A stretch of 64,000 nt of DNA, from assembly GCA_041661745.1 (NCBI GenBank), contig JBAZTR010000004.1:12961-76960 (forward strand), written 5' to 3'. The number at the start of each line of letters is the position of its first letter. Position 1 is the stretch's first letter. The notes under the pieces are model-generated. The model saw only the letters and a program-made list of their open reading frames with translations, was not told the DNA's origin and ran no database searches. The position numbers and the translations under genes are program-made. The stretch is from Patescibacteria group bacterium (GTDB taxonomy: Bacteria; Patescibacteriota; Patescibacteriia; UBA9934; GWF2-40-263). Positions 2,986 through 63,772 of this stretch are shown in pieces.

Positions 2986-2993
2986 ATTTTTAG

Positions 2994-3084: not shown

Positions 3085-4095
3085 CTAATTAGTAAAAATA
3101 CTTCGCTTGTAAGCCTCAAGGTTCTCCAAAGCTACACCAGTGCCCTTAGCCACACACAACTGCGGATCCTCGGCCACATAAACCGGCACGCCGGTGGCTT
3201 CGGAAATCAAACGATCTAAATTGCGAAGCTGGGCCGTACCACCGGAAAGGACAATACCCTTTTCCATAACATCGGCCGACAATTCCGGCGGGGTTTTGTG
3301 TAAAACCTCTTTTACCGTGGCTAAAATGCCTTCGAGTTCGTTTTGAATAGCTTCGGTTACGTCGTCGGAGGTGACCTCGATAATTTTAGGCAAGCCGGTT
3401 ACCATGTCGCGCCCTTTAATTTCCATGACTAATTTTTCTGGCAAATACATGGCTGAACCAATGCGGATTTTAATATCTTCCGAAGTTCGCTCACCAATAG
3501 CCAGACCATACTTACGGCGAACAAATTCAGAAATGGCCGCATCAAATTTAACCCCGCCAATTCTAATTGATTCGGATGAGACAATACCACCTAAGGATAA
3601 GACCGCCATTTCAGAAGTTCCGCCACCAATATCAATAATCATGTGACCAGATGGCGAACCAATGGGAATATTGGCACCAATGGCCGCGACAATCGGTTCC
3701 TTAATAACATAGGCGGCGCGGGCCCCGGCCGCCAAAGTGGCGTCAATAACCGCGCGACGTTCGACCGAAGTAATTCCCCCAGGCACGGCCACCATAACTT
3801 CAGGCCGAAAAATACGAACACCACCGACAGCTTTGTTAATAAAATAACGGAGCATGGCCTCGGTGGTGTGATAATCGGCGATAACGCCGTCCTTAAGCGG
3901 ACGACGAGCAATAATTGTGTCCGGCGTACGGCCAATCATTTCTTTAGCTTCACGACCAACCGCCAAAACTTTTTTATCGACTTTAGAAACTGCCACTACT
4001 GATGGCTCATTGATAATAACGCCTCGTTTAGGCAAGTAAACGAGGACAGTGGTGGTTCCAAGGTCAATTCCGATTTTCTTTATAAACATACTCAA
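3085..4095 (-). CDS. mreB: Rod shape-determining protein MreB (actin-like ATPase)
   Basis: IGIDLGTTTV… N-terminus and full-length actin/Hsp70 fold motifs (DIGGGTSE, GIVLSGGTAQL). 336 aa. Confidence 0.9.
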   Translation of the reverse strand: MSMFIKKIGIDLGTTTVLVYLPKRGVIINEPSVVAVSKVDKKVLAVGREAKEMIGRTPDTIIARRPLKDGVIADYHTTEAMLRYFINKAVGGVRIFRPEVMVAVPGGITSVERRAVIDATLAAGARAAYVIKEPIVAAIGANIPIGSPSGHMIIDIGGGTSEMAVLSLGGIVSSESIRIGGVKFDAAISEFVRRKYGLAIGERTSEDIKIRIGSAMYLPEKLVMEIKGRDMVTGLPKIIEVTSDDVTEAIQNELEGILATVKEVLHKTPPELSADVMEKGIVLSGGTAQLRNLDRLISEATGVPVYVAEDPQLCVAKGTGVALENLEAYKRSIFTN

Positions 4096-4154
4096 TCATT
4101 TCCCCCTTGTTACGCCGAAGTCGAGCTTAGCTCGACAAATCCAGCTAAGCTGGA

Positions 4155-7308: not shown

Positions 7309-7638
7309 TTACCTAGAAAGTAACGCTACCATCAAAAACATCATAGCTCCAATTAAGACAAACCAGGCCACGGTCATACCCAAAAACCACAAGCCTTCCT
7401 TCTTTTTATTATCCAAATACAAAAGAATCGGTTTCAAGAAAAACAAAATACCCATCATTGCCGTCGAGAGAACAAGAATCATTAGAATAAAAGCCATCAT
7501 CAAAAAATCTGGGACCGAGACGCCAAAGTTGCCAAAAAAGTCTTCGCTGGAAAGCGTCAGGGTGAGGATAACGATATAAGCAACTGCCCCGGCGGCATGA
7601 TAAAACGGATAAAGGATATTTTTGTAGAAATTTTTCAT
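7309..7638 (-). CDS. Small integral membrane protein (3 TM)
   Basis: Hydrophobic 110-aa ORF. The first 6 codons of the track ORF (to 7656) translate the PE-Y element, so Met at 7638 is preferred. Confidence 0.5.
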   Translation of the reverse strand: MKNFYKNILYPFYHAAGAVAYIVILTLTLSSEDFFGNFGVSVPDFLMMAFILMILVLSTAMMGILFFLKPILLYLDNKKKEGLWFLGMTVAWFVLIGAMMFLMVALLSR

Positions 7639-7644
7639 ATTTTT

Positions 7645-7726
7645 GGGTTTGAGCATGTAGTAGGTAGTATGTAGGCAAAAGTTCCCGATTAGATCTATTG
7701 CCTACCCACTACATACTACATACTAA
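7645..7726. repeat. Palindromic element PE-Y (reverse orientation)
   Basis: Reverse complement of the 2994 copy: tagtaggtagtatgtaggcaaaagtt…gatctattgcctacccactacatactacatac. Confidence 0.85.
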
Positions 7727-7731
7727 GCAAA

Positions 7732-8208
7732 CTAGTTAATAATCCAAATAGTCCAGTTCAAAAACGCCGCAAAGCTAACCCAAAGAATGTAGGGGACAAG
7801 AAGGTATACGGCCGGACGCGAAACTTTCCAAAACACCACCATAGTCGCCACAATCGAAACCCACAAGGCAATGATTTCCAAAAAGGCCGCGCCGGGATTC
7901 TGTAGGCCAAAGAAAATAATTGACCACAAGACATTCAAAATCATTTGAGCCGCGAAAATCTTTAAGGCAAACTTTACATCTTTCTTTTTCCAACCCTTTT
8001 GCCACACCAAATACGCGGCAATACCCATAAGGGCAAAAAGAATCGTCCAAACCGGACCAAAAAGCCAATTGGGCGGTTGAAACCACGGCTTGTTTAATGT
8101 GGTGTACCAGGTAGTAATGGCCGGCGCAGTGAAAAACGAGCCAAGAATGCCGGCCGCTTCGACGGCAATAATGGCCAAAACGAGATGAAGAAAATTTTTT
8201 GTTTTCAT
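7732..8208 (-). CDS. tspO: TspO/MBR family tryptophan-rich sensory protein
   Basis: Conserved TspO signature (WYTTLNKPWFQPPNWLFGPVWTILFALMGIAAYLVW) across five TM helices. 158 aa. Confidence 0.8.
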   Translation of the reverse strand: MKTKNFLHLVLAIIAVEAAGILGSFFTAPAITTWYTTLNKPWFQPPNWLFGPVWTILFALMGIAAYLVWQKGWKKKDVKFALKIFAAQMILNVLWSIIFFGLQNPGAAFLEIIALWVSIVATMVVFWKVSRPAVYLLVPYILWVSFAAFLNWTIWIIN

Positions 8209-16856: not shown

Positions 16857-16917
16857 ATATCTTTCACAAACCTTCCGAGAGACCGGGAGGTTTTTTAAAT
16901 TAACAAAAATCCAATCA

Positions 16918-16946
16918 TTGACAAAAACCAATTTCTCCCCTACTCT
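16918..16946 (+). promoter_or_regulatory. Sigma70-like promoter ttgaca-N17-tactct for the alpha-CTD-like gene
   Basis: ttgaca at 16918 and tactct after a 17-nt spacer. GGAGGA Shine-Dalgarno sits 4 nt before ATG 16977. Confidence 0.5.
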
Positions 16947-16976
16947 GCCCACATCAAACCGGGTTCTGGAGGAAAT

Positions 16977-17282
16977 ATGTCCGACCAGTTTTATGGACTC
17001 AACGACCGAGAGTTGGAACTTCTTCTGAAGAGCGTGGACGACTTCAAAATGTCGACCCGACTCAGAAACTGCTGCGAGCACGCTGGGGTGGGATGGGTGT
17101 GGCAGATGGTCAAGCTCAACAAAGCCGAGCTGCTCGCCGAAGAGCCGCGGCGCTTCGGTCCCAAGTCGATCAAGGAGATGGAGGAACTTCTCTTGCCTAT
17201 CGGTCTTTCCATGGGCCGCAACTTCACCAGGGAGCAGCTGACGTTCCTCAACGGCTGTTCCAATCCGGCCGGTACGGCCTAA
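16977..17282 (+). CDS. Stand-alone RNA polymerase alpha-subunit C-terminal-domain (alpha-CTD)-like HhH protein
   Basis: STRLRNCCEHAGVGWVWQMVKLNKAELLAE-PRRFGPKSIKEMEELLLPIGLSMG aligns to E. coli RpoA alpha-CTD [54 protein letters not shown]. GC-rich, 101 aa. Confidence 0.65.
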   Translation: MSDQFYGLNDRELELLLKSVDDFKMSTRLRNCCEHAGVGWVWQMVKLNKAELLAEEPRRFGPKSIKEMEELLLPIGLSMGRNFTREQLTFLNGCSNPAGTA

Positions 17283-17372
17283 CCACATCTCGCTCTCCAC
17301 TGTTTTCTGGTGGAGTTTTTTAAATCTCTCAAAAAAAAATAAAACCTCAGCAGTGCTGAGGCAGAAGTCAGT
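17283..17372. terminator. Bidirectional intrinsic terminators between convergent alpha-CTD-like genes
   Basis: ctccactgttttctggtggag+T6 for the plus gene. cctcagcagtgctgagg followed on the minus strand by ttttattttttttt for the minus gene. Confidence 0.7.
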
Positions 17373-17385
17373 GACGAACGGACGA

Positions 17386-17718
17386 TCAGGTCCGTCGGGC
17401 GTTGAGGGCATGCTCGAGGCCACGGAAGGCTCGGCTGAACTCGCGAGCCCCCTCGATGAGGCTCGGGTGGTCCAGGGCTTCCACCTTGGCGGCGATCTCA
17501 GGGTCGTCCGGGATCTGGGGCAGGCCGAGCCGGTTGAGCTGGCGGTTGATGCAGCGCCAGGTGTCTTGGCCGTAGCCGCGCCGGTGAGCGAGGTCGCGAC
17601 GGGTGAGCTGGGTCACATCGCCGGCCGTGCAGCAGTGGTGGCGCGCGGCGAGGTAGTTGACGAGGTTGCGATCGAAACCGGCTTCGACAAGCAAAAGCGA
17701 GGCGGAATCTTGACACAT
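17386..17718 (-). CDS. Stand-alone alpha-CTD-like HhH protein (paralog)
   Basis: NLVNYLAARHHCCTAGDVTQLTRRDLAHRRGYGQDTWRCINRQLNRLGLPQ follows the same alpha-CTD pattern, including a Cys pair. GC-rich, 110 aa. Confidence 0.6.
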   Translation of the reverse strand: MCQDSASLLLVEAGFDRNLVNYLAARHHCCTAGDVTQLTRRDLAHRRGYGQDTWRCINRQLNRLGLPQIPDDPEIAAKVEALDHPSLIEGAREFSRAFRGLEHALNARRT

Positions 17719-17796
17719 GTAATCTCCGGGGTTGGGGGCGACAAAAGGTTTGTATCAAAAAAAACAAAATTGATCAACTTGCTTGGGAGTTTTTTA

Positions 17797-17885
17797 ATTT
17801 AGAAAAGGACGAGGGGTTTGAGGGGGACGAAGAGGACGAAGTGTTTAAAAAACAAAAAGCCCCGCGTCGAGCACCGAAGGACAGC
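17797..17885. repeat. Conserved 85-nt module, inverted copy of 11040..11128
   Basis: Its reverse complement reads gtgctcgacgcggggctttttgttttttaaacacttcgtcctcttcgtccccctcaaacccctcgtcc. Confidence 0.8.
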
Positions 17886-18115
17886 CCGGCTGAAGCGGCC
17901 CTTACCTTCAGTTGGTCGGCGAGCTATGTTCGAGTGCAGCCCCGCAACTTGCTTGACTTAACAATCGAGCAAGGTGCAGGGGCCAGCGAGTTAGCGAGCC
18001 GTGGCCGCTGAAGGCGGTTAGCTGTCCGAGGAGCGGAGACAGGGGCAGTGTTTCTTTTGCTGTGTCCACCGAAGCTCGGCGAAGGAGGATAACTTTTCTT
18101 TGCGACAAAGAAAAG

Positions 18116-18779: not shown

Positions 18780-18960
18780 AATATATTTTATCCTCACCAG
18801 TGCCCCCCCCGTTTCCCCTCACCCTTACCCTCTCCCTGCCAAGATCAGATGGGAGAGGGGGTGGTGTTATTTCGTCACAGGGGATTCCCCTCCCCCATCT
18901 GCTTTTTTAGCAGGGGGAGGGGTTAGGGGAGAGGGGCCAACAACACGAACGGGGCGGCGC
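18780..18960. repeat. Compound PE-C palindromic module (inter-cassette element, copy 1)
   Basis: ccctctccctgccaagatcagatgggagaggggg … cccctcccccatctgcttttttagcagggggaggggttaggggagaggggcc. Near-identical modules at 19741..19900 and 21541..21750. Confidence 0.85.
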
Positions 18961-18968
18961 CGGCGGTC

Positions 18969-18997
18969 TGGACACAAATTCAAAGACATGCTAAAAA
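18969..18997 (+). promoter_or_regulatory. Conserved cassette promoter tggaca-N17-taaaaa
   Basis: tggaca at 18969..18974 and taaaaa at 18992..18997. The same motif with identical spacing recurs at 19903 and 20557. Confidence 0.6.
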
Positions 18998-19030
18998 AGT
19001 ATGCCCCCTTTTAGAAAAAGGAAAGAAACC

Positions 19031-19720
19031 ATGCAGGACACCATTAAGCATCTTCTCCTTATTGCCCGACTCACAGCACTGGCCAACAAGGTCAACGGAG
19101 TGATCACCGATAAAAGGCAGGAAAAGACGATCACAAAGCTGATCATGGGGGGATTGGTTCGCACTATCCTCTGGGGCGTGCTCTGGTACGTTCCACTCTG
19201 GCTTCTGGGGGACCCTTCGTTCCTTATGAAGCTCCTCTGGGCCAACCTGATCGTCAGCGCGATGCTCTTCGTTGTGCACGCAGTTGTTCCAAGCAACGTG
19301 ATCACTCGAAGGATGCAGCGGCAAAAGATTAAGACGAAAGGACCTATGGCGATCTTCGGTCTGTTCATTGTCATCTTCTTCATGCCCACAGCATTACTCT
19401 TCGCGGTGAAGGCGGGCGACCAGTACCAGGAGGTCTTGGCCGGCAAAATCCTGCGCGACGACCGGGCCACGCTCTTTTCGCGAAACGGACATCTGATCAA
19501 ACTCGTTGAGGAGTATTTTGTGAGGTCTGGAAAAGAGATGGACAAAACCGTCATGGATCAGGTCTGGGTGCTGGAGCAGGAGCTGCTCGACTTTTCCGAG
19601 CGAACTGGCGAGCTCGGCGAAAGCAACGAAATCACCTGGCCGGAGACCGAGCCTTTCCTCAGAAGAGTTGAGAGGCTGATCGACGAACTCACTGTCTTGA
19701 CTGGCAACACTTCCTCTTAA
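19031..19720 (+). CDS. GC-rich cassette gene 1: membrane protein (3–4 TM) with cytoplasmic C-terminal domain
   Basis: The track ORF starts at 19001, inside the promoter. Met at 19031 after AAGGAAAG is preferred. TM segments are LVRTILWGVLWYVPLWLL, LLWANLIVSAMLFVV and IFGLFIVIFFMPTALLFAV. GC is about 58%. Confidence 0.55.
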   Translation: MQDTIKHLLLIARLTALANKVNGVITDKRQEKTITKLIMGGLVRTILWGVLWYVPLWLLGDPSFLMKLLWANLIVSAMLFVVHAVVPSNVITRRMQRQKIKTKGPMAIFGLFIVIFFMPTALLFAVKAGDQYQEVLAGKILRDDRATLFSRNGHLIKLVEEYFVRSGKEMDKTVMDQVWVLEQELLDFSERTGELGESNEITWPETEPFLRRVERLIDELTVLTGNTSS

Positions 19721-19742
19721 CCCTCACCTGAGGGATTTTTTA
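19721..19742 (+). terminator. Cassette terminator cctcacctgagg + T-run
   Basis: Conserved hairpin (atcctca-cc-tgaggat) plus a T-tract after each of the three cassette genes, at 19721, 20484 and 21511. Confidence 0.6.
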
Positions 19743-19900
19743 TTCCCTCTCCTTCTGACGGCCATACCCCTCACCCCCTGCCCCTCTCCCTGCCAAGATC
19801 AGAGGGGAGAGGGGTTGTAAACTTTGTCACGAAAAGTTCCCCTCCCCCATCTGCTTTTTTAGCAGGGGGAGGGGTTAGGGGAGAGGGGCCAACACATGAG
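19741..19900. repeat. Compound PE-C palindromic module (inter-cassette element, copy 2)
   Basis: Near-identical to 18780..18960. Confidence 0.85.
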
Positions 19901-19902
19901 GG

Positions 19903-19931
19903 GAGGGCTTTCTGGACACAAACCAAAAACA
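19903..19931 (+). promoter_or_regulatory. Conserved cassette promoter tggaca-N17-taaaaa
   Basis: Same motif and spacing as at 18969. Confidence 0.6.
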
Positions 19932-19981
19932 ATGTTAAAAACACAAAAGTCGGCAAGCCTCTCGGCGGTGCGGAGGGAAAG

Positions 19982-20434
19982 ATGAAAATCGAACTAACCA
20001 CTCGTATGAGCGTACGTGTGGTCACGGGCGATCTGTCGGCAGACGTCCACCTCGAGGATCGTCGTTTGAAAGCACTGATTGCCCTCGCGTATAAATTCAA
20101 GGGTGAATGCGTCACCCTTGTCATCGATCCGATGATGGAAGAGGAAGCGACCTCGATCATCGACTCGATCGCGGGTCTCAACGGTGAGGGAGCCGACCAG
20201 ACAATCAACGGCCGACGCCTGGATGTGCACGAGCTCAGGGTTGATTGCGGAAACCAGCGCGGTATTGTCGTGAACCCCCACAACCCGAGATGCGATCTGC
20301 TTCTCCTCATGAGCATCGCAATCAAATCAGAACAGCTCACCGTCGAACTGCCGCCAACCGACACCATGGCCGAACTCGTCGACCGAATCTCGGTCTACCC
20401 CTTCCCGCACAAGGAAAGGGTCATGCCAGAATAA
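19982..20434 (+). CDS. GC-rich cassette gene 2: hypothetical soluble protein (150 aa)
   Basis: GGAGGG Shine-Dalgarno 5 nt upstream. GC about 60%. No domain recognised. Confidence 0.55.
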   Translation: MKIELTTRMSVRVVTGDLSADVHLEDRRLKALIALAYKFKGECVTLVIDPMMEEEATSIIDSIAGLNGEGADQTINGRRLDVHELRVDCGNQRGIVVNPHNPRCDLLLLMSIAIKSEQLTVELPPTDTMAELVDRISVYPFPHKERVMPE

Positions 20435-20483
20435 CTTAGCCACGCTGTAGCTCGCCACGAGCGAAGGCGGGACGCCACCCTCT

Positions 20484-20509
20484 CGATCCTCACCTGAGGA
20501 TCTTTTTAT
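20484..20509 (+). terminator. Cassette terminator (gatcctcacctgaggatc + T5)
   Basis: Conserved hairpin plus T-tract. Confidence 0.6.
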
Positions 20510-20550
20510 TTCTGGCTGGTCTCCTACTCTCCCAGCTTCCTAGTCTCCTA
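20505..20550. repeat. PE-T family fragment (ctcctactctcccagcttcctagtctcctaaca)
   Basis: Shares ctcctag/cctagtctcc words with the elements at 22166, 33533 and 41294. Confidence 0.5.
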
Positions 20551-20556
20551 ACACTC

Positions 20557-20585
20557 TGGACACAAATCCAAAACTATGATAAAAA
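20557..20585 (+). promoter_or_regulatory. Conserved cassette promoter tggaca-N17-taaaaa
   Basis: Same motif and spacing as the other two cassette promoters. Confidence 0.6.
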
Positions 20586-20622
20586 TCTGGGTCGCAAATT
20601 CCGCGCGACTCTGGAGGATTCC

Positions 20623-21492
20623 ATGAACGTAATCCATGATGGAGAAACCGGAGGCATCCGGGTGTTCTTCGGGGAAACCGTGATCGACATCGACCCCCGC
20701 GATCCGCGCTGTCATGGGCTGCTCAACGACCGGGGGTTCATGAAGATCGCCAACATCAAGTGCGGTTCGATCTTGATCGTCTTCGGCCGGAGCTTGAGGA
20801 CGAAGACGGCCCGCATGATGGGCGAGATCATGTTCGGCTGGACCCTCACCAATTCCTCGAACTCGCAAATCGTCGCCGAAAGAGGGGTGCGTGTGAGGAT
20901 CGGCGGCTGGAAGCCCATGCCCGTGCCGCACAACTGCGATATGTTCGAGCTCCTCGAACACGCGGACGCGCTGTACTTCGACACGATGGAGATCCGAACG
21001 AAGGCTTCGGAGGTGGCAGCCAGGGCCTTGGGGCCGTTCATCATGATCCCCTTCGTTCCGCCCGAGCCGACCCCGAGCGAACTGGCCATCGCCGAGTTCA
21101 GGAGAAGGACCGGCGTGGAGCCGACTTCGGTGCTGCTCGAAGCAGAGGCCGAGGATGCTCCCGAACCACCGGTGGCGGTTCCGGCTGGCGCCGAAGCGAA
21201 CTCCCCCATCCCCGGCCTCACGCCGGAGCAGGTCAAGAACCTGATCAGGCGATGCGACGAGCTGGGGTTCACCACTCGTGTGACGAACGGCCTCAGGACC
21301 GTCGGATGTGAATTCGTCTACCAGGTGGTGGAAAAAACCGGACCCGAGACGCTCGGGGCCAAGGGCCTCGGTCGCAGGTCCAATAATGAGCTCAGGGTGA
21401 TTCTCGCCGAACTCGGGCTCAGCTTCGGCATGAACTTCACCACCGAACAGCGAGCCGCTCTCGAGCGCCTGGCTCACCAGCTGCCGCGCTGA
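20623..21492 (+). CDS. GC-rich cassette gene 3: two-domain protein with C-terminal alpha-CTD-like HhH domain
   Basis: The C-terminus TTRVTNGLRTVGCEFVYQVVEKTGPETLGAKGLGRRSNNELRVILAELGLSFGMNFTTEQ parallels ORFs 16977 and 17386. The N-terminal 200 aa have no recognisable domain. GGAGGA Shine-Dalgarno. Confidence 0.6.
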   Translation: MNVIHDGETGGIRVFFGETVIDIDPRDPRCHGLLNDRGFMKIANIKCGSILIVFGRSLRTKTARMMGEIMFGWTLTNSSNSQIVAERGVRVRIGGWKPMPVPHNCDMFELLEHADALYFDTMEIRTKASEVAARALGPFIMIPFVPPEPTPSELAIAEFRRRTGVEPTSVLLEAEAEDAPEPPVAVPAGAEANSPIPGLTPEQVKNLIRRCDELGFTTRVTNGLRTVGCEFVYQVVEKTGPETLGAKGLGRRSNNELRVILAELGLSFGMNFTTEQRAALERLAHQLPR

Positions 21493-21510
21493 TCGCCCCC
21501 CCCTCCCCTT

Positions 21511-21537
21511 CGATCCTCACCTGAGGATCTTTTTTTA
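21511..21537 (+). terminator. Cassette terminator (gatcctcacctgaggatc + T7)
   Basis: Conserved hairpin plus T-tract. Confidence 0.6.
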
Positions 21538-21540
21538 ATT

Positions 21541-21750
21541 CCCTCTCCTTCTGAGCCGTTGTACCCCTCACCCATACCCCCGTGCCGATGTCACCCCCCC
21601 CCTCACCCCTGCCCCTCTCCCTGCCAAGATCAGAGGGGAGAGAGGTTGTAGACTTTGGCACAAAAAGTTCCCCTCCCCCATCTGCTTTTTTAGCAGGGGG
21701 AGGGGTTAGGGGAGAGGGGCCAACACGTGAGGGGAGGATTGAGGAGAGGG
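21541..21750. repeat. Compound PE-C palindromic module (copy 3, extended)
   Basis: Near-identical core to 18780 and 19741, with additional C-tract arms. Confidence 0.85.
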
Positions 21751-22157: not shown

Positions 22158-22165
22158 TTAAACAA

Positions 22166-22194
22166 GCTAGCCTCCTAGTCTCCTAGCATCCTAC
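22166..22194. repeat. PE-T family element (ctagcctcctagtctcctagcatcctacc)
   Basis: cctag-based tandem words shared with the elements at 33533, 41294 and 20505. Confidence 0.6.
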
Positions 22195-23666
22195 CGCACC
22201 TTCTTCGTCACATTAAATCCAAGATACTTCCCCAACATAAGGCGAGTCTGCGCATCAATGGCCGGTGCGGCTCCGAACACCGTAAAAGTAATGGGAAGAA
22301 GAAGCCACTGAAAAATCATGACAATCCAAGCGGTTGCTTTCACGGTCTTTGGTCGTGGTGGCAACATGGTTAAGGACAAGCCGGCGGTAATAAAGGCTCC
22401 ACCCATGGCTAGTCGCATAATCCATTCCAAAGTAAAAGGCGCGGCATGAATAATGGCCGAGCCACTGCCGGCCGCCACCCATAGCGGCAAATAACCAAGG
22501 GCAAAAATAAGAATCGGCGCCGTGGCCCAGGTGTACATGCCCTCAATATGATTGAAAAGATATTTAATTTTCTTGTTCAAGGGAATGAGCTTATCTTTTT
22601 TAAAGGCATCAACCATGACCGGAAAGTGTTCGACACCCCAAGCCCAGCGACGCTGCTGTTTGTACAAGGCTTTTAAACTCTCCCAATAGTTGGCGCCAAC
22701 GACCGTGTCCATGGAAACCGGCAAAAACATCGGTACCACGCGATAGTCGCCGTGGTATTTAAGGAAAGCTTGCAGAAAAATTCGCGAATCTTCCGAGACA
22801 ATATCTTTTTGCCAAAAATCAACATCAACTAACATTTTCCACGGCATGGAGTGCGAAGAAAAAGTCCAAAGTCGGTCCGAGCGAGCCAATTCCGTCAAAA
22901 GCCAAAAAACCGTACCAAAGGCGGCAATTCTAACCGGGGCGCGCGAGGTCCAAATATTATTGGAAAACAGGACAACTGGTTGATATGAGGCGTGCGTTGG
23001 ATTCGGCGAAGTTAAATACAAATACGAAAGGCAGGCGAAGTACGATGGGTGTACGACAGTGTCGACGTCAAACGAGGAAACAATAATATCTTCGGCTGGG
23101 ATATCAGAAAACTCACTGGCCAAAATCTTTTTAACTTCGTGGCCGGAATAATTAAGGTTGGAACCTTTACCGGGAATTTCGTCAGGCAGACCAACCGGAT
23201 GTTCGGTAACAATAATTTTTTTGAAGGTTTTGCTAAATTCCTGTGAAATAATCGCCGCGTTTTTTTGGAAACGCTCGTGATCACGTCCTTCACCGGCCAA
23301 GACAATAATCATTTTGTCCTTGGGGTAATGGGTCGCGGCAATGGAACGCAAGGTTTCACGAATAATTTCCGTGCTTTCTTTATAAGTCGGCAAGAAAATT
23401 AAATGATGCAGGCGCTGCCAATTATTTTGTTTTTGTAAGTCAGCAAACCAATCATACTTAATGGCGTGTTTGTATTCGCGCCAGGAAAGCAGCATGAAAA
23501 TGGCAAAATAAACAATTCTAAAAAACCAATAAAGGTCAAAAACAATAATAAAGACAACGGGAATAATTGGCGCGACAAACGACAAAACAATCGCCAAAAT
23601 TAAAGTCGTCCAGACCAAGGCGCCGGGGAAAATTTCCCAAATTCGATTTTTGCCATATGTCGACAT
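22191..23666 (-). CDS. Processive family-2 glycosyltransferase (CesA/chitin-synthase-like membrane GT2)
   Basis: N- and C-terminal multi-TM regions flank a GT-A domain carrying the QQRRW (QxxRW) motif of processive beta-glycosyltransferases. 491 aa. Confidence 0.75.
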   Translation of the reverse strand: MSTYGKNRIWEIFPGALVWTTLILAIVLSFVAPIIPVVFIIVFDLYWFFRIVYFAIFMLLSWREYKHAIKYDWFADLQKQNNWQRLHHLIFLPTYKESTEIIRETLRSIAATHYPKDKMIIVLAGEGRDHERFQKNAAIISQEFSKTFKKIIVTEHPVGLPDEIPGKGSNLNYSGHEVKKILASEFSDIPAEDIIVSSFDVDTVVHPSYFACLSYLYLTSPNPTHASYQPVVLFSNNIWTSRAPVRIAAFGTVFWLLTELARSDRLWTFSSHSMPWKMLVDVDFWQKDIVSEDSRIFLQAFLKYHGDYRVVPMFLPVSMDTVVGANYWESLKALYKQQRRWAWGVEHFPVMVDAFKKDKLIPLNKKIKYLFNHIEGMYTWATAPILIFALGYLPLWVAAGSGSAIIHAAPFTLEWIMRLAMGGAFITAGLSLTMLPPRPKTVKATAWIVMIFQWLLLPITFTVFGAAPAIDAQTRLMLGKYLGFNVTKKVR

Positions 23667-24387: not shown

Positions 24388-24394
24388 ATGTTTT

Positions 24395-24477
24395 TTAGTG
24401 GGTAGGTGTGTAGTAGGTAGTATGTAGGCAAAAGTTCCCGACTAGATCTATTGCCTACCCACTACATACTACATACT
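24395..24477. repeat. Palindromic element PE-Y
   Basis: Same orientation as the 7645 copy. Confidence 0.85.
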
Positions 24478-24881
24478 CAAACCTTTTTAATAGTAATATG
24501 AGGCGGCCGATCGTAAACCGGGGTAACAAAACCTTCGGTTTTTTGTTTTACCCAAATAGCGCCGGATGTTCGGATCATTTCTTCCCCACCCTGGCGGGCC
24601 GCGTTTTCTACACCAATCACTAAAAGTTTCTTGGCAAAGGCTAAAGCATTGGCAATGGTGACAATAATCCTGGTCGAGGTAAACGAACCTGGGCCGGAAA
24701 CCACCACAATCTTTTCCAGGGCTTCTGGCGAAACCAAGTGATCGTGCAAAAATTCGGCGGTCGTGGCCAAATAACCCTCGGGGGCAACGGTAAATTCCTG
24801 AAACGAAAGAAGACGACCTTCGCTATCAAGAAGGCCGGCTTCCATTCGAGTAATATCTTGAGCGGCCAAGAATAAAATCAT
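24477..24881 (-). CDS. tsaB: TsaB (YeaZ)-like protein, truncated ASKHA fold
   Basis: VVSGPGSFTSTRIIVTIANALAFA matches the TsaB/Kae1-family glycine-rich loop. 134 aa, shorter than canonical TsaB. Confidence 0.55.
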   Translation of the reverse strand: MILFLAAQDITRMEAGLLDSEGRLLSFQEFTVAPEGYLATTAEFLHDHLVSPEALEKIVVVSGPGSFTSTRIIVTIANALAFAKKLLVIGVENAARQGGEEMIRTSGAIWVKQKTEGFVTPVYDRPPHITIKKV

Positions 24882-27838: not shown

Positions 27839-28237
27839 TTATTTCAATTCAGCCTTACCGCCAGCTTCTTCGATTTTCTTTTTCATTTCTTCGGCAGCGG
27901 CTTTGTCAACGCCTTCTTTGATCATCTTCGGGGCGCCGTCGACCAAATCCTTGGCTTCTTTAAGTCCAAGACCGGTCACTTCACGGACGACTTTGATGAC
28001 GCCGATTTTGTTGTCACCAGTGGCCGTCAACTCGACGTTGAAAGAGGTTTTCTCTTCAGCGGCGGCAGCACCACCAGGCGCGGCGGCCATCATCATAGCT
28101 GGAGCCGAGGCGGAAACGCCGAACTTCTCTTCAAGGACCTTAACCAATTCGGCCAGGTCAAGAACGGACATTTTTTCGATTTCTTCGACCAAAGCTTTGA
28201 ACTTGGCCGGGACTTCGACAATTTTTTCGTCAGACAT
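27839..28237 (-). CDS. rplL: 50S ribosomal protein L7/L12
   Basis: Canonical L7/L12 with an Ala-rich hinge and the C-terminal [27 protein letters not shown] motif. Confidence 0.95.
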
Positions 28238-28240
28238 ATT

Positions 28241-28322
28241 TTTAGGTTCGAGTATGTAGTATGTAGTGGGTAGGCAATAGATTTAATGAAACTTTTGCCT
28301 ACATACTACCTACTACGTACTA
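28241..28322. repeat. Palindromic element PE-Y
   Basis: Lies between rplJ and rplL, immediately 5' of the rplL start. Confidence 0.85.
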
Positions 28323-33532: not shown

Positions 33533-33582
33533 CTAGTCGATTCTGCCTAGTCTCCTAGCTTCCTACCCTCCTAGCCTCCTAA
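33533..33582. repeat. PE-T family element (cctagtctcctagcttcctaccctcctagcctcct)
   Basis: Identical 35-mer to the reverse complement of 41297..41331. Confidence 0.75.
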
Positions 33583-34043
33583 AAATAAACCGGCTGAAAA
33601 ACCGGCACCGCCAACCAAAATATAAAAGCAATAAGAAGAAGCGAAACCAAAACTTCGAGCCAAACGGTTTTCCCTTCCTTACGCCCCAACCAACCAAAAC
33701 CAAAAAGCGGGAAAAAAATAAAATCAAAAACCAACCAAACCAAACCAGTAAAAAACAAAAGGGTCAACGGCCCGTACGGTTGGCCGACAAAATCAAGCCA
33801 GCCTTTATCAGCAACAAAAGGGTAGGTGCTGCCAAAGACCATCCCCATCAAAATATGTAACAGAAGGCCGGTGGCAAAAGCTGCTAATTGCGACAGGCGC
33901 AAATCAAAAAAAGATTTTACATCAACCACTAGCGGCAAATTTTTAACCTTGCCGCGGCGAACAACTTCCGTGATTATCGCCGGCATGGAAACAAGGAAAG
34001 CCGCCAGGCCACCGACTGAAGCGCCTAAAATAATGTCGTTCAT
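33579..34043 (-). CDS. Integral membrane protein (4–5 TM)
   Basis: Hydrophobicity. 154 aa. Confidence 0.45.
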   Translation of the reverse strand: MNDIILGASVGGLAAFLVSMPAIITEVVRRGKVKNLPLVVDVKSFFDLRLSQLAAFATGLLLHILMGMVFGSTYPFVADKGWLDFVGQPYGPLTLLFFTGLVWLVFDFIFFPLFGFGWLGRKEGKTVWLEVLVSLLLIAFIFWLAVPVFQPVYF

Positions 34044-34062
34044 ATTTGTTTTTTTTGGACAC

Positions 34063-34150
34063 GAGTATGTAGTAAGTAGTGGGTAGGCAATAGATCTAAT
34101 TGGGAACTTTTGCCTACATACTACCTACTACTTACTACAATACTACATAC
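34063..34150. repeat. Palindromic element PE-Y
   Basis: Same orientation as the 2994 copy. Confidence 0.85.
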
Positions 34151-39783: not shown

Positions 39784-39866
39784 TCTGCTTCCCCTCTCCT
39801 TACGAAGGAGAGGGGTGTAGGGGTGAGGTAAACAAAAAACCATCCTTTCTTAGGGTGGTTTTTTGT
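39783..39866. repeat. PE-C element (cccctctcc-ttacgaa-ggagagggg-tgtaggggtgagg) plus terminator hairpin
   Basis: Perfect 9-bp inverted repeat, then aaccatcctttcttagggtggtttttt. Confidence 0.8.
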
Positions 39867-41290
39867 TCCGTATCAACTCAACAGTTCCGCGTGCATCCCT
39901 TTTGACGAGACGCTTAGCGAGAGAGCGATAAACTCCCCGCCAAATTTAATGAACATGATTCTGTCGAGCTGGTATAGCGAATCGTCTGTCTGGAACAGAC
40001 GATTCGAGATTTGTGAGTGCGAACGTCGGGTGTTAATTGAGAAGGAGGAGTGGGCGGCCGCTGGAGGGTGTGCGGCCGCCCTTTTAGTTGATCAGTGTAG
40101 CGCCTTTTTTCACGACCGAAGTCGTGGCCCGGAGAGCTTTTTTACTCCCGAGCAATAACGGCGCACATGGTCACCTCCTCTTTTTCTCTACTAAATCTCC
40201 GAGCAACTCAGAAACTTGGTGGAGTGGGGGAAAACGGAGTGCGTGTCCCCCGAGACTCCTGTCACAACTTCCTTGCGACAGAGTAGGAACAGTTCGCTTA
40301 ACCGGCGTCTCGCGACTCCGGAGGGCCAACTGAAAAGCCCTTTTGTGTTCTGCTATTTCTAGCCCCAGAACTGTTGGGCCGAGGTTGTGTTAGGTCGCGA
40401 GCCTAACGGCGTCACTTGTTTTTCGCAATACTTGATCAACACGCATTCGTACTAGTGTTTGGAATTGCTCGTCAACGGTCCGTGAACGGACTCGTCCGCT
40501 TACCAAATCCCCTATCGAATTACCATGTCTTTCAAGAATCACTACTCGCAAGCCGCGAACTCTGTCCTGCGTCTCCGCAGACCACCTACATTCAGTACTC
40601 CACTGTTGCAGCTTTCGCTGATCAGTCAGTGTTTCCCTTTCGAGTGGCGAGATTCGCGCTACCAACGCCGGCTAGTCCTGATATTTTGGTCGGATGGGCG
40701 ACCAGCTTATTCCCATCCGTTGCCCTACATCGTCTCCACTCAATCTCCTTCACCAACAGTTTCGCTTCGTTGGCGCGCCGGTTCTTGGGAGACACCGGAA
40801 CAGAGTTTCTTTGCCGCACTATCCGCCTTGTGCAGCCAACGCTGGGGGTGGTTTCCGGACCCCAGGCAGGTTTCCTCTCTAGGCCCTAAGGCGACGAGGA
40901 TTTCGCGCAACCTGCAGCGCGCCGTTCATCCCGCCCACACCATGTGAGCGGGACCGGAGGAGAAATTCTTCTGATTAACCAAACTGCGAGTCGAACATCG
41001 CAGTCTCCTTGGTTGGGGGGGGGGGAACGACCCTTCTCTTGAGGACATGAGCCAGTCAGTCCTCCAACTGTGTCCAACCCAATGGGAGGGACAACCACCT
41101 CTTTCGAAGTGGTGCAGCGGGGTGCAGCCGACGTCCGACCGAAGTCGGACAATGAGCACAGGCGGCCTAGCACCCCCACAATCCGCGACTTTGTAGTCGT
41201 GAACTTTGGGGGTGACAGGAAAATTAGGAGAGTAAATATACCACATTTTGGCCACTTTGTCAAGATTAAATGGCCGTATTTTGGCTTATT
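39867..41290. other. GC-rich (about 58–60%) 1.4-kb island without credible ORF; candidate structured non-coding RNA or decayed foreign DNA
   Basis: Only short, mutually overlapping ORFs in several frames. A promoter-like ttgacg-N17-gataaa lies near 39900. Stable tetraloop hairpins cacgac-cgaa-gtcgtg and tccgac-cgaa-gtcgga are present. Confidence 0.4.
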
Positions 41291-41293
41291 TTA

Positions 41294-41400
41294 GCTAAGG
41301 AGGCTAGGAGGGTAGGAAGCTAGGAGACTAGGCAGATGCGAGTTAAAGACTAGATTCCTAGCCTCCTAGCATCCTAGCCTCCTAAAAGTCTCCTAAAAGT
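41294..41400. repeat. PE-T compound element (inverted pair)
   Basis: aggaggctaggagggtaggaagctaggagactagg … cctagcctcctagcatcctagcctcctaaaagtctcctaaaag. Confidence 0.75.
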
Positions 41401-43432: not shown

Positions 43433-44518
43433 ATGGATTTACACAAATCGTTGCAAGACAAAAGACAGGAACAAAAAACCCTCGAAAACAAATTAATTGA
43501 TTCGAACACTCTTGGCGATCCTAAAAAATTACGGGAAATCAACGAAGCTTTTGCCGCGATTTCAGAAATTGTCGAACTGGGCGAGGCTTGGGAAAAAATC
43601 GTTACCGAACTTGAGGGGGCAAAAGCAACTTTGTCCGAAGCAAATGATTTGGAACTCCGGGCCATGGCCGAACAAGAAATTACAAAACTCGAGGCAGATT
43701 TACCGAAACTTGAAGAAGCTTTCACTTTGGCTCTGGTACCACCCGATCCGCTCGACAAAAAAAATATTGTCGTGGAAATTCGCGCCGGGGCTGGGGGTGA
43801 CGAATCAGCTTTATTTGCCTCGGAACTTTTTCGCATGTATTCACGCTACGCCGAACGACAGAGTTGGAAAACAAGTATTGTTTCACAATCGCAAAACGAT
43901 CTTGGTGGTTTTAAAGAAATTATCTTTGAAATCGTCGGTAAAAACGTTTTCAGTAAATTGAAATATGAAAGTGGTGTGCATCGCGTCCAGCGTGTGCCGG
44001 AAACAGAAAAGGCCGGTCGCGTTCACACCTCAACTGTAACTGTCGCGGTTCTGCCCGAAGCCGAAGAAGTTGATTTATACATTGATCCAAAAGACTTGCG
44101 AATCGATACCATGACCGCCGGCGGCCATGGCGGACAAAGCGTTAACACTACTTATTCGGCCGTGCGCTTGGTACATATTCCGACTGGTTTAATTGTTCAG
44201 TGTCAGGACGAACGCAGCCAATCGCAAAACAAAGAAAAGGCCATGGCGGTTTTACGCTCAAGATTGTTCGCAATAAAACAAGAGGAAGAAAAGGCTAAAC
44301 GCGAATCCGCCCGTCGCGGCCAAATCGGCACTGGCGGCCGCAGTGAGAAAATTCGCACCTATAACTTCCCTCAAGACCGCGTTACTGATCATCGCATTCG
44401 CCAAAGCTACCACAGCTTACCCGGTATCATGGACGGCGACATTGAAAAGATTATCTCTGACCTAAAAACTGCGGAATTGAATAATGCCTTCGTAGAAAAC
44501 ACCGACGACGAGGAATAA
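43433..44518 (+). CDS. prfA: Peptide chain release factor 1
   Basis: GGQSVNTT (GGQ motif), RVPETEK (PxT tripeptide region). 361 aa. Confidence 0.9.
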
Positions 44519-45492
44519 AGGCCCAACAAACTCCCCCTCTTGACAAAGATGGGGTGTTTTATTAATCTTTTCCTTGCCCTTGTCGAAAAGCAGCTTCGCT
44601 GTCAAAGACCTTGGGCACATCCCACACGAGCCGTTCTTCTATGGAGGAAGCCGCGAATCCCGTGAAGCGCCTTCGCAGGGCCACGATACGAGCAACGTCG
44701 CGTTAGCGACACCACTCGTCCCTCGTACGGGAAAACCTAACTCATCGGCCCGACCACCGCTTCCTGCGCGCCGTCTCCTCACAGAGACGAGCGCGCCTTT
44801 TTTATTTATCCACAGTTATCCGCATCTAGCCATTGACGCCTTTTAAAGCAAAGAGTATTCTAGACAATACCGTCGCAGAAAGGCACGGAACGAAAAAGCT
44901 CAAGGCTTAAATGCCAACCATGTCGCATCTTCGGATGCGCCCACGGCGAGCCAATCGTCCATGACCTCACACGCGACAGTGTCCCTGTTCGCTTTCGAGC
45001 TCCGTTGGGGCTCACTCAGTGGTGAAATATCGGCCATAAGGTCCTCGGACCGATCTGGCGAACCCTCTACCAAGAGGTGGAAAGCACCGCTAAGCGATCA
45101 GCCTGTCCAAAAACATGATCCGATGCTCGATCGATAAGATCACTTCAAATCGACACATGCCGAAAAGGGCAACGTGAGGGAGACCTTACCAAACCCAAAT
45201 CGTGCATAACGAGCTAAGAAAGATGGGTGGTACATAACCAAAACCACCAAGAAGACAGGAGAGAAAAACGGGGTTGCGCGACGAATGCGATCAAAAACCA
45301 AGAACGAAAAGTTCCGAGATCAAAAACAGATTACTCCCAAAACGACTTCGGTCGTTCTAAGAGAACACCTGGACGAAATCTCGCCACTAATCACTTGGCC
45401 AAGATTGCCTCTTCGCCGCGCACCCCCGTCCTCTGGACCTTCTCTCCGCGACCTCAGGGTACTCCCCGAGGTCGTTATTTTTATAAGTAATC

Positions 45493-45521
45493 TTGACAGA
45501 AAGTCGCGGCTTGTATAGAAT
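45493..45521 (+). promoter_or_regulatory. Strong sigma70-like promoter ttgaca-N17-tagaat driving the tRNA-like gene
   Basis: ttgaca at 45493..45498 and tagaat at 45516..45521, about 10 nt upstream of the tRNA-like 5' end. Confidence 0.6.
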
Positions 45522-45531
45522 GCGGCCGTGA

Positions 45532-45628
45532 GGAGGCTTAGCTCAGTGGTAGAGCACGAGCTGATAGGAATCAGGGCCCTTGCCTGGTTACTAGCCCGTG
45601 GCCACAGGTTCGATTCCTGTAGCCCCCA
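45532..45628 (+). tRNA. Atypical tRNA-like gene (97 nt); anticodon region about 25 nt too long (possible intron or pseudo-tRNA)
   Basis: Acceptor GGAGGCT / AGCCCCC (one A·C mismatch). Canonical D-arm GCTCAGTGGTAGAGC. Canonical T-arm ACAGG-TTCGATT-CCTGT and a 5-nt variable loop. The anticodon stem CGAGC/GCCCG encloses 32 nt instead of 7. Confidence 0.4.
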
Positions 45629-46105
45629 CTCTTTAAAACACAGCGCCCAACGTCGCCCTGCAACCACCGGGCGGGAAACAAGACGACGTTGTCGAGAATT
45701 GGTTCGGTGGCTCTCACCCTCCCTCCGAAGAGCCACCCAAAGCCAGGGTTCTCGAAAAGAACGACCACGCTGAAGGGCCGCCGGCGAAATCGTTCTTGGC
45801 GCAACCTCTCGCTCGCTTGGGTGAGCGGATAATGGAAGGCTTTTCTTGGAGAAGCGCTGTCTCAGTACAGTGTCACACCGACACCCGCTTCTCTGTCTTC
45901 CTGTCTGTTCACCCGAGCGGTGCTTATTGCGCTGTCAGCAATGTTCAGCGCAGCCCGTGTGGCCGCCCGAAATAGGAAAACGGGTGTTGGGACACTCCCG
46001 TCCCCAAGTTCCAACACTCTCCCCCCGCCTGCTTCGGGCGACCCGCTTCCCGCACCTCACCTCTCGTGGCGTGCGGTTTTTATTTATGATAATGTTAGGC
46101 AAGAT

Positions 46106-47017
46106 ATGACAGTAGTCGAGGTCTTAAAATGGGCCAGCGAAAAATTAAAGAACGAAGTTAAAGACGCGTCTGATTCATCCATGCTCGACGCGCAGGTTTT
46201 GTTGGCCGCGGTTTTAGATGTCCCCACCTCGTGGCTGTTCACTCATTTTGATAAAACTTTGGAAGAAAAAGATTTGGATATTTTTAGGCAAATGATTAAG
46301 CGGCGGTTGGCTAACGAACCGATTGCTTACATTACCGGCGAAAAAGAATTTTATAAAAGAAATTTCTTTGTTAATTCTTCTACGCTGATTCCCCGCCCGG
46401 CCACAGAGACTTTGGTGGAAGCGGCAATAAAAATTGCTCACGAAGAAACCGGCCAAGTTTTGTTTGCCGATATTGGCACGGGCAGCGGAGCGATTGCCAT
46501 TACCTTGGCCGCGGAAACCGGTTTACCGGTCATTGCTTCAGACATAAGTTCACCAGCCCTGTTGGTGGCGCAAAAAAACGCCGAAGCTAACAAGGTGGCT
46601 GAACTGGTTGATTTACGCCAAGGCGACTTATTGGAACCGCTTGTAAAAATCTTCCAAGCCGTCAAAAAAACTAATCCTGAACCGATTTGCGAACATTTAA
46701 TTGTTTGTGCCAATCTTCCCTATCTTACAGCCAAACAGTGGGCTAACACGGCGCTTGATGTGCGCGAATACGAACCAAAATCAGCCCTAGAGGCCGGGGT
46801 TGATGGACTTGATTTGTATTGGCGTTTAATTCGTGAAATAAAACAGCGCCGCGACCTCTTCCCTGTTCGACTCACTCTTTTATTAGAAATTGATCCTGAT
46901 CAAAAACAAAAAATCGCGTCTTTAATTAAACGCGATTTTCCGCTTTCTAATATTATTGTTTTACGCGATTTGGATGATTTTGATCGAATAGCCGTAGCCA
47001 ACCTTAATGCCCTTTAG
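46106..47017 (+). CDS. prmC: Release-factor glutamine N5-methyltransferase PrmC/HemK
   Basis: SAM-binding DIGTGSGAIAI and catalytic NLPY (NPPY-type) motif. The track ORF 45920..47017 is extended upstream into the island, so Met at 46106 is preferred. Confidence 0.8.
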   Translation: MTVVEVLKWASEKLKNEVKDASDSSMLDAQVLLAAVLDVPTSWLFTHFDKTLEEKDLDIFRQMIKRRLANEPIAYITGEKEFYKRNFFVNSSTLIPRPATETLVEAAIKIAHEETGQVLFADIGTGSGAIAITLAAETGLPVIASDISSPALLVAQKNAEANKVAELVDLRQGDLLEPLVKIFQAVKKTNPEPICEHLIVCANLPYLTAKQWANTALDVREYEPKSALEAGVDGLDLYWRLIREIKQRRDLFPVRLTLLLEIDPDQKQKIASLIKRDFPLSNIIVLRDLDDFDRIAVANLNAL

Positions 47018-63624: not shown

Positions 63625-63772
63625 AGTTAAAATTATTATAGCAGAAAAATGACAAATTTAAAATCAAAAATAAGTTATCCACACAAAAAAACAAATAAAA
63701 TAGATAAAGAAGTCAAAATGTACTAAAATATAAACAACCTTCCTAAATCAATAATTAAGAACTCACACACAT

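Follow-up and report, generated by a model that had tools for sequence, protein, structure and literature searches.

Few large bacterial non-coding RNAs (ncRNAs) of unknown function have been described (OLE, GOLLD, ROOL and raiA), each of which has proved structurally surprising, and to our knowledge none is from the Candidate Phyla Radiation (CPR), the members of which have genomes of about 1 Mb that are under strong reductive pressure. GOLLD and ROOL are typically adjacent to tRNAs and are associated with phages or prophages. Here, a 1587 bp gap (44519-46105) that separates prfA, encoding release factor 1 (RF1), from prmC was analysed in a 64-kb stretch of DNA from a Patescibacteria group bacterium, hereafter the window. 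The gap very probably represents a cluster of ncRNA genes, the central unit of which, U2, would belong to a genuine structured RNA family. U2 is a previously undescribed family amongst the large structured bacterial ncRNAs, whilst the tRNA-like gene that heads the following unit, U3, and its counterparts in relatives are an unusual class in which the anticodon arm is expanded.

Both GOLLD (RF01998) and ROOL (RF03087) are large, ornate, multi-domain RNAs (PMC12286853, PMC5737381) that form oligomeric cages (PMC12286853). U2 resembles them in its length of 0.6-0.8 kb, its many hairpins and A-rich joiners, and its own promoter and terminator, and also in having tRNA or tRNA-like genes as neighbours, both in the window and at the related loci L011, L014, L017 and L039 (in L041 the contig begins within U3 and adjacency to U2 is not visible). 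It differs from them in being vertically inherited within one CPR clade, with housekeeping genes as its flanks in all loci, and in carrying a promoter with a DnaA box. An earlier note on this DNA had proposed an ncRNA of the GOLLD/ROOL type; what stands of that proposal is a conserved, covarying RNA located directly 5' of a tRNA-like gene, but U2 is a member of neither Rfam family, and its setting is chromosomal and syntenic.

Non-decoding tRNA-like RNAs are known in the form of the bacterial Y RNA YrlA and of mascRNA. The topology of YrlA is the reverse of the one described here, in that the termini of the RNA lie in the stem on the anticodon side and it is the acceptor that is closed, and no Rfam match to YrlA or to Y RNA was obtained for the tRNA-like gene. 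This gene departs from canonical tRNA (RF00005) in having an anticodon loop of 32 nt (18-102 nt in relatives) instead of 7 nt, and is similar to engineered tRNA scaffolds, where the anticodon loop is exchanged for a foreign hairpin. Group I introns in bacterial tRNA genes, Patescibacteria included, are self-splicing and 184-894 nt in length; in Patescibacteria, which are rich in tRNA introns, they start after U, end in G and restore a normal tRNA-Asn, -Asp or -Thr, with some located at 35/36 and some missed by RF00028 or standard tools (PMC13011429). The tRNA-like genes share with these introns the phylum, an insertion in the anticodon loop and a tendency to be overlooked by standard tRNA finders, but their inserts are hairpins of 11-95 nt with no group I core, and their removal gives no coherent mature tRNA.

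Predicted RNA units between prfA and prmC

Promoter and terminator signals divided the gap, which the earlier note had treated as one element, into three tandem plus-strand units (U1, U2 and U3), each running from a sigma70-type promoter to a GC-rich hairpin followed by a U-run. The boundaries of the units were placed by sequence reading, a promoter scan and minimum free energy (MFE) folds, from which their transcription is predicted. When compared with dinucleotide shuffles, none of which was equally stable, the folds had MFE z-scores of -4.4 (U1), -8.9 (U2) and -7.2 (U3), and the UUCG-capped hairpins pointed out previously were present both by sequence reading and in the folds. The GC content of the gap was 54.1% (U1 59.1%, U2 51.5%, U3 58.5%), relative to 45.9% for RF1, 44.0% for PrmC and 45.9% for the window; the value of approximately 58% given for the whole gap in the earlier note is true of its outer thirds only. 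No repeats of the island were found elsewhere in the window, within which it is unique, and no extended complementarity to the neighbouring genes was detected.

None of the short open reading frames (ORFs) in the gap contained a Pfam domain. Searches of relatives by tblastn with all 36 stop-to-stop frames of at least 30 amino acids returned short matches only, which overlapped the same DNA segments in multiple frames and on both strands, indicating conservation at the nucleotide rather than the protein level. The absence of a credible ORF remarked upon previously was borne out.

Pfam searches supported the identity of both flanking plus-strand genes, prfA (43433-44518; PCRF, E 1.6e-68; RF-1, E 1.2e-42) and prmC (46106-47017; PrmC_N, E 1.5e-19, plus a methyltransferase domain), and with it the 1.6-kb separation that the earlier note had reported for this pair, the pairing of which is near-universal. 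An exact look-up of RF1 retrieved the same island in two assemblies. Relatives (designated by L numbers) were chosen via the contigs of PrmC homologues at decreasing identity, and these homologues carry the names Candidatus Uhrbacteria or Patescibacteria. An ORF-poor gap was present in L041 (81% PrmC identity), L006 and L039 (both 80%), L004 (78%), L008 (74%), L040 (72%), L011 (68%), L013 (63%) and L014 (61%), and measured 1.1-2.2 kb where the contig held both flanks. In L016 (54%), an NTP_transferase gene is followed by a 750-nt gap with a U2-like RNA, whilst the outgroup L015 (55%) has the NTP_transferase gene and no gap, and in the outgroup L003 (Magasanikbacteria, 32%) the RF1 ORF abuts PrmC. 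A scan of GTDB genomes with PrmC returned one distant Magasanikbacteria locus only. Given that the island is syntenic within the clade and that no gap exists in the outgroups, the island is old, and the split of prfA and prmC is derived and has been inherited vertically in one Uhrbacteria subclade. The layout of RF1, RNA island and PrmC recurs in relatives to approximately 54-61% PrmC identity, hence the term 'insertion' used in the earlier note is not apt; the split is here a marker of the clade and not an assembly or insertion artefact.

The U2 RNA family and its promoter

U2, the core of the island, is a predicted RNA of approximately 615 nt (44868-45482, plus strand), and homologues of 540-785 nt were found at the matching locus in 12 Uhrbacteria lineages. 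When the island was compared with relatives by blastn, only U2 and the last 30-70 nt or so of U3 matched. A pattern scan of metagenomes (JGI contigs) with the U2 promoter and 5' motif returned 22 stretches, comprising two new true members (L017 and L023), four known lineages that were found again and 16 chance GC-rich matches. The family sample amounts to about 12 lineages, and variability among them leaves the 5' half of U2 without a reliable consensus. Owing to the many insertions and deletions in this half, plain MAFFT alignment of full-length U2 with RNAalifold recovered no more than the terminator and the 3' closing helix, and helices were therefore anchored by hand.

The RNA opens with the conserved motif UACCGUCGCAGAAAGG (44868-44884, plus strand, as are all elements of U2 that follow), of which UACYGUCG is present in all group A and B members. 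Its central part contains a 6-bp long-range helix, P-LR, the 5' strand of which (CCUGUC, 45102-45107) leads into a conserved A-rich joiner, CAAAAACAU (the two together spanning 45102-45116), and the 3' strand of which (GACAGG, 45254-45259) lies 146 nt downstream of its partner. Across 11 sequences, P-LR takes the forms CCUGUC/GACAGG, ACUGUC/GACAGU, CCUGUU/GACAGG, CUCACG/CGUGAG, CUCGCG/CGCGAG, CCUGUU/AACAGG and CCUGUU/AGCAGG. All 54 cells of the hand-anchored mini-alignment were paired, compared with 33-46% when the partner was slid by 1-3 columns, and all six pairs showed changes on both sides, a covariation score that none of 500 shuffles reached. The comparative alignment for covariation that had been suggested as a check was therefore positive for this helix. 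Inside P-LR, a conserved AAUGG is followed by a hairpin, P-M1 (GUGGU...ACCAC), and then by a conserved CAAGAAG (45227-45247). The strands of P-M1 are GUGGU/ACCAC in the window and L011 and GCGAC/GUCGC in L040, such that three pairs are altered on both sides.

The 3' domain of U2 (45269-45429) is an irregular rod of approximately 160 nt closed by CGGGG-UU-GCGCG and CGCGC-A-CCCCCG, and a rod of about 150-180 nt with the closing helix GGGG(UU)GCGCG / CGCGC(A)CCCC was recovered when each homologue was folded alone. On the plain MAFFT alignment (A2), 75% of rod cells were paired as against 31-47% with slid partners, a percentage which is inflated relative to these controls in that the structure came from the window sequence itself; changes on both sides were found in 20 pairs, compared with 6-12 in slid controls. 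A CCUCUGG motif conserved in the alignments lies 3' of the rod (45430-45436), and a pairing of 4-6 bp, assigned partly by eye, is possible between its UCCUCU and an AGAG(GA) located 5' of the rod. The unit closes with an intrinsic terminator, CGACCUC...GAGGUCG followed by UUAUUUUU (45449-45482), and all 12 of the homologues terminate in a stable hairpin and U-run. G.U pairs are present in P-LR of L004 and L017 and in the hairpins of U3; as these would be A.C on the opposite strand, the plus strand is the folded one.

Two sigma70-like promoters additional to that of the tRNA-like gene had been recorded in the earlier note, and two were located, at 44540-44568 (U1, by sequence reading) and at 44833-44861, where the plus-strand U2 promoter TTGACG-N17-TATTCT scored 9/12 in the scan. 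The U2 homologues share this layout of TTGAC, a 17-nt spacer and GTAWYST, and the distance from TTGAC to CYGTCG is fixed at 32 nt among them. The -35, spacer, -10 and 32-nt spacing are kept in nine lineages that were retrieved by PrmC synteny, and because these lineages were obtained through the PrmC protein and not through the motif, the conservation of the promoter, and of the DnaA box described below, is an independent observation.

Two DnaA-box-like 9-mers on the plus strand, TTATCCACA (44806-44814) and TTATCCGCA (44816-44824), stand 18 and 8 nt 5' of the U2 -35, respectively, arranged in tandem as TTATCCACA-G-TTATCCGCA. The first is an exact DnaA-box consensus (TTATNCACA) and thus a predicted site of DnaA binding. 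This box, which was absent from the account given in the earlier note, is conserved at the U2 promoter in every lineage. In relatives it is located 8 or 17-18 nt upstream of the -35 and is the sole exact copy in each locus of 5-11 kb, invariably at the U2 promoter, with positions in L004 (4133), L006 (438), L008 (3910), L011 (3393), L013 (3631), L014 (1942), L016 (4275, minus strand, where it is inverted ahead of a divergent U2), L023 (approximately 3121), L039 (approximately 481) and L040 (approximately 493 and 503, two perfect copies in tandem). Promoters regulated through DnaA boxes include those of dnaA and nrdAB in Escherichia coli. The U2 promoter is similar to DnaA-regulated promoters in having an exact TTATCCACA just 5' of the -35, sometimes in tandem, with spacings that are about one helical turn apart, and unlike the known examples in that control would be exerted over the gene of a large ncRNA, for which we know of no precedent.

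The window harbours three exact copies of TTATCCACA. Of the two outside the island, one is at 55204, within a coding region, and the other (63675-63683) has the same AAGTTATCCACA context as the copies at U2 promoters and is situated in AT-rich intergenic DNA upstream of a gene starting at approximately 63774, the product of which starts in the manner of a type IV pilin. Across the window, the cumulative GC skew declines monotonically with no inflection, hence the DnaA boxes were rejected as an origin of replication.

The tRNA-like gene, accessory units and competing explanations

The third unit, U3 (approximately 45529-46085, plus strand), follows the promoter TTGACA-N17-TAGAAT (45493-45521, plus strand), which scored 11/12 in the scan, in keeping with the near-consensus promoter that the earlier note had placed before the tRNA-like gene. 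That gene (45532-45628, plus strand) gave the single Rfam match in the whole 64 kb, at 50.6 bits to the tRNA model (RF00005; gathering score 29) over model positions 1-71. It comprises a 7-bp acceptor stem, in which the irregular A3.C70 occupies the AlaRS identity position, a D arm with GG, a perfect T arm (ACAGG-UUCGAUU-CCUGU), a discriminator base and a 5-bp anticodon stem (45557-45561/45594-45598), on which a 32-nt hairpin of approximately 10 bp (45562-45593) replaces the 7-nt anticodon loop. In the Rfam alignment, 31 residues occupy the part of the anticodon loop where the model has six, position 33 is G, and exactly two pairs are non-canonical, both of them A.C (acceptor 3:70 and anticodon stem 29:41). 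These features agree with the intact D and T arms, the anticodon region about 25 nt too long and the A.C mismatches in two stems described previously. Standard ARAGORN called no tRNA or tmRNA in the whole 64 kb, including any ordinary tRNA at this position, and the gene does not combine the 7-nt loop, U33, purine 37 and readable anticodon of a decoding tRNA.

Cloverleaves scoring 40-55 bits were found in the window, L014, L017, L039, L041 and L011, with inserts confined to the anticodon loop and ranging from 11 to 95 nt in the relatives. The tRNA-like genes at the head of U3 in L014, L017, L039 and L041 scored 41-50 bits with all arms paired and carried inserts of 72, 77, 95 and 17 nt, respectively. 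The T arm is near-identical among the window, L014 and L017, and the inserted arm is conserved between L014 and L017 with compensatory differences. No CCA is encoded in these genes, except possibly in L039. The tRNA-like genes are non-decoding tRNA-shaped RNAs in which the elbow and acceptor stem are constrained.

Odd tRNAs were also observed at the U3 position of two relatives. In L041 (249-326 and 355-429), a normal-looking tRNA-Gly(CCC) is next to a Thr(UGU)-like gene with a 9-nt loop or C37, whilst L011 (4391-4462 and 4471-4540) encodes an Arg(UCU)-like gene that has C33 and a loop of effectively 5 nt, together with a second copy that has a truncated anticodon arm.

The remainder of U3 is a GC-rich tail of approximately 420 nt with long G.U-rich hairpins (45629-46049, plus strand), the conservation of which is limited to the last 70 nt or so, shared with L039 and L004. 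Its terminator, CCGCAC...GUGCGG followed by UUUUUAUUU (46050-46085, plus strand), overlaps the likely prmC promoter TGATAAT and ends 20 nt 5' of the prmC start codon, and the terminator block is 94% identical in L004, which is without the rest of U3. In L013, the sister of L014, an unrelated structured segment has replaced the tRNA-like head. The replacement of the module in L013 and the loss of U3 from L004 indicate that the tRNA-like module is useful but not essential.

U1 begins with the plus-strand promoter TTGACA-N17-TAATCT (44540-44568), which was read from the sequence and falls below the threshold of the promoter scan. The -10 hexamer is identical to that of the U2 promoters of relatives, and the -35 context, CTTGACAAAG, is common to the window and to the U1 promoter of L004. 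The predicted RNA of approximately 230 nt (about 44575-44807, plus strand; 59% GC) finishes with a hairpin (44766-44796) and a U-run (44798-44807); its MFE was -86.6 kcal/mol, a value that includes the 3' terminator hairpin, and none of 200 shuffles was as stable. No sequence homologues of U1 were found among the relatives by blastn, and at its position the relatives have an unrelated GC-rich unit or nothing.

We consider it probable that the gap consists of three back-to-back structured ncRNA genes of one Candidatus Uhrbacteria clade that function along the lines set out here, although the specific mechanism, in which a trans-acting U2 is gated by DnaA and the accessory RNAs are handled as tRNAs, is put forward tentatively. 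U2 would comprise a variable 5' part, a central part enclosed by P-LR with its A-rich joiners, and the 3' rod of about 160 nt, and is likely to fold compactly because A-rich joiners beside covarying helices typify tertiary-packed RNAs. Since three serial terminators are present and extended complementarity to the neighbouring genes is lacking, it may act in trans as a compactly folded scaffold or ribonucleoprotein component, and not as an antisense or cis regulator. DnaA bound at a box one or two helical turns 5' of the -35 would gate the transcription of U2 and thereby couple the amount of this RNA to replication or to the state of growth. The U3 transcript would begin with a tRNA-shaped module unable to decode, the acceptor and D/T elbow of which could be recognised by RNase P, 3'-end processing and CCA-adding enzymes, so that this head may serve as a processing and stabilising handle that defines its own ends and those of the tail, which would be set free in the process. 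Spacer tRNAs in rRNA operons and engineered tRNA scaffolds utilize tRNA maturation likewise. U1 and the U3 tail would be fast-evolving, lineage-specific accessory RNAs, or possibly relics.

The long retention of a 1.6-kb RNA-only locus in a reduced genome implies a real function. If the proposed mechanism is true, U2 would provide the first example of DnaA control over a large bacterial ncRNA, and the tRNA-like gene a natural precedent for the design of engineered tRNA scaffolds. U2 offers a defined target, backed by covariation and with a testable regulatory input in the DnaA box. The tRNA-like genes, which may be natural tRNA bodies carrying other structured RNA, are a trap for annotation, being overlooked by standard tRNA finders and wrongly assigned to Ile, Ser, Leu or Thr in intron modes. 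A broader and more speculative proposition is that a CPR clade keeps a conserved locus, probably several per genome, for RNA-only genes, consisting of a DnaA-wired RNA of 0.6-0.8 kb and natural tRNA-scaffolded RNAs.

Several points weigh against the favoured interpretation. The promoters and terminators were identified by consensus matches alone, no partner protein or target has been linked to U2, the ligand of the TTATCCACA site may be something other than DnaA, and the U2 family is narrow, the JGI metagenome scan having added only two true members; the inflated pairing of the rod belongs here as well. Furthermore, the conservation of U1 and of most of U3 does not reach past close relatives, and with U3 missing from L004 and its head from L013, these units are dispensable and could be non-functional.

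The last of these points bears on the explanation that only U2 is functional, with U1, the tRNA-like gene and the U3 tail being drifting relics of a redundant tRNA operon and its spacer, and the inserts marking disabled pseudogenes. We regard this as unlikely. The rapid turnover of U1 and U3 and their loss in some lineages are in its favour, as are the two A.C mismatches in the tRNA-like gene of the window and the near-normal tRNAs of L041 (Gly CCC, Thr UGU) and L011 (Arg UCU-like), which suggest an ancestral tRNA cluster. However, the acceptor, D and T arms are fully paired in four independent lineages, in which only the anticodon loop is altered, the inserted arm has undergone compensatory change between L014 and L017 whilst being conserved, near-consensus promoters and terminators are kept around each unit, and the folds of U1 and U3 lie far beyond those of shuffles, as their z-scores indicate.

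That the gene is a functional tRNA, such as tRNA-Ile(GAU), from which a short intron is removed post-transcriptionally appears improbable. The intron mode of ARAGORN did yield tRNA-Ile(GAU) with a 27-nt intron, as would be expected of the tRNA with an unusual intron that the earlier note had considered, but only with nucleotide 26 dropped, an A.C pair in the anticodon stem and the intron at 38/39, and the related genes were forced to Ser(GGA) with an intron at 35/36, Leu(AAG) and Thr(CGU) at 33/34. These inconsistent anticodons and splice positions argue that the genes are not intron-bearing tRNAs. We know of no bulge-helix-bulge splicing endonuclease system in bacteria, which also counts against this explanation. 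Patescibacteria are unusually rich in tRNA introns, some of them oddly placed, yet those described measure 184-894 nt (PMC13011429), hence plain-hairpin inserts of 11-95 nt cannot be group I ribozymes like the published ones. No match to Intron_gpI was obtained with Rfam at E<=10, and no group I or II model matched.

A cis-acting role for the island, as a leader or attenuator of prmC or in the control of read-through from prfA to prmC, is slightly less credible still. The three units share the orientation of prfA and prmC, and the U3 terminator stands 20 nt before the prmC start codon, as such a role would have it. Against this, there are three strong serial terminators with a new promoter after each, the terminator and promoter block stays at prmC in L004 despite the absence of U3, and U2, at 0.6-0.8 kb, far exceeds known leaders.

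It is very doubtful that U2 is a divergent form of GOLLD, ROOL, OLE, HEARO or raiA, or of RNase P, tmRNA, SRP or 6S RNA, even though its size, ornate multi-domain fold and tRNA or tRNA-like neighbours recall GOLLD and ROOL. None of the 4227 Rfam models matched U2 at E<=10 in positions 44400-46200, and none gave a U2 family match at E<=1 in four homologous loci; the families without a match include all of the above as well as group I and II introns, so that the Rfam check proposed earlier for GOLLD, ROOL, HEARO, OLE and the introns was negative throughout. ARAGORN called no tmRNA in the window or relatives, RNase P motifs of the P4/CR-I type were not seen by eye, there is no association with phages, and no description of U2 was found in the literature on CPR or Uhrbacteria ncRNAs. 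Three specific resemblances were considered and rejected. GGAAAG near 45065 and ACAGGAGAG near 45255 vaguely recall CR-I and CR-IV of RNase P, but ACAGGAGAG corresponds to the 3' strand of P-LR, GGGG-GCGCG has its pairing partner at the 3' end, and no Rfam match exists. A group-I-like P3/P7 pseudoknot of P-LR and CCUCUGG was set aside since the 5' strand of P7 is not conserved in L006, L008 and L023, and a 6S-like reading of the rod was dismissed as it has no large central bubble and sits within a larger conserved RNA.

Least probable of all is that the island derives from the decay of a protein gene or was left behind by a mobile element inserted at a tRNA, the latter in line with the tRNA-derived integration scar of the earlier note: a sister lineage does have an NTP_transferase gene between prfA and prmC, and tRNA genes are common integration sites, but no NTP_transferase remnant was detected by tblastn (E<=0.1) in any island, on which grounds a decayed NTP_transferase gene was rejected, U2 coexists with that gene in L016, neither an integrase ORF nor flanking direct repeats were found at the island, nor any similarity to it in phage records, plasmids or viral contigs, the locus is syntenic and vertically inherited across the clade, and compensatory changes keep both the cloverleaf and the inserted arm.

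Other GC-rich and repeated elements

A second large ORF-poor, GC-rich unit was observed on the minus strand at 39835-41263 (approximately 1.4 kb at 52-59% GC). It is headed by an extended -10 promoter, TTGACA-N17-TATATT with TG (41263-41235, minus strand), which scored 11/12, and ends in a hairpin and U-run near 39835-39864. The fold of a 926-nt piece had a z-score of -3.56, the public assembly calls two short ORFs only, with no Pfam matches, and nothing in the unit resembles U1-U3 in sequence. Possibly, this is a further gene for a large ncRNA in this genome.

Further GC-rich patches occur at 1-1000 (63%) and 16900-18000 (57%), where ORFs overlap on both strands and have no Pfam match; in the former, a stretch of 53 nt is directly repeated at a distance of 501 bp (24-76 and 525-577). 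Both patches are possibly additional RNA genes or foreign DNA. The region 18800-21750 comprises three tandem GC-rich units of approximately 950 bp with a common 132-nt repeat (96% identity, two copies), and the units share a terminator-like hairpin (CCTCACCTGAGG plus a T-run) and a promoter-like block. An ORF at 20623-21492 had a weak match to the RNA polymerase alpha C-terminal domain, the other ORFs of this region being without Pfam matches.

Palindromic intergenic repeats of approximately 90 nt, REP/MITE-like and of the form GTAGTAGGTAGTATGTAGGCAAAAGTT...AACTTTTGCCTACATACTACCTACTAC, were found in both orientations at 2983-3071, 7636-7725, 24389-24478, 28235-28322 and 34048-34137, and a similar element, tagtgaatagtaagtag...cctacctactaccc, is located within the RNA island of L004 (about 3960-4110). 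Arrays with an 8-nt period, CTAGNCTC / CCTAGNNT, are present at 20516-20561, 22159-22212, 33547-33584 and 41298-41395, at the edges of GC-rich patches, and include one inverted pair (41298-41331 / 41350-41383). In L006, an intein (PF14890) is annotated at 7388-7881 in gyrB, downstream of the locus, the product of which has 1047 residues.

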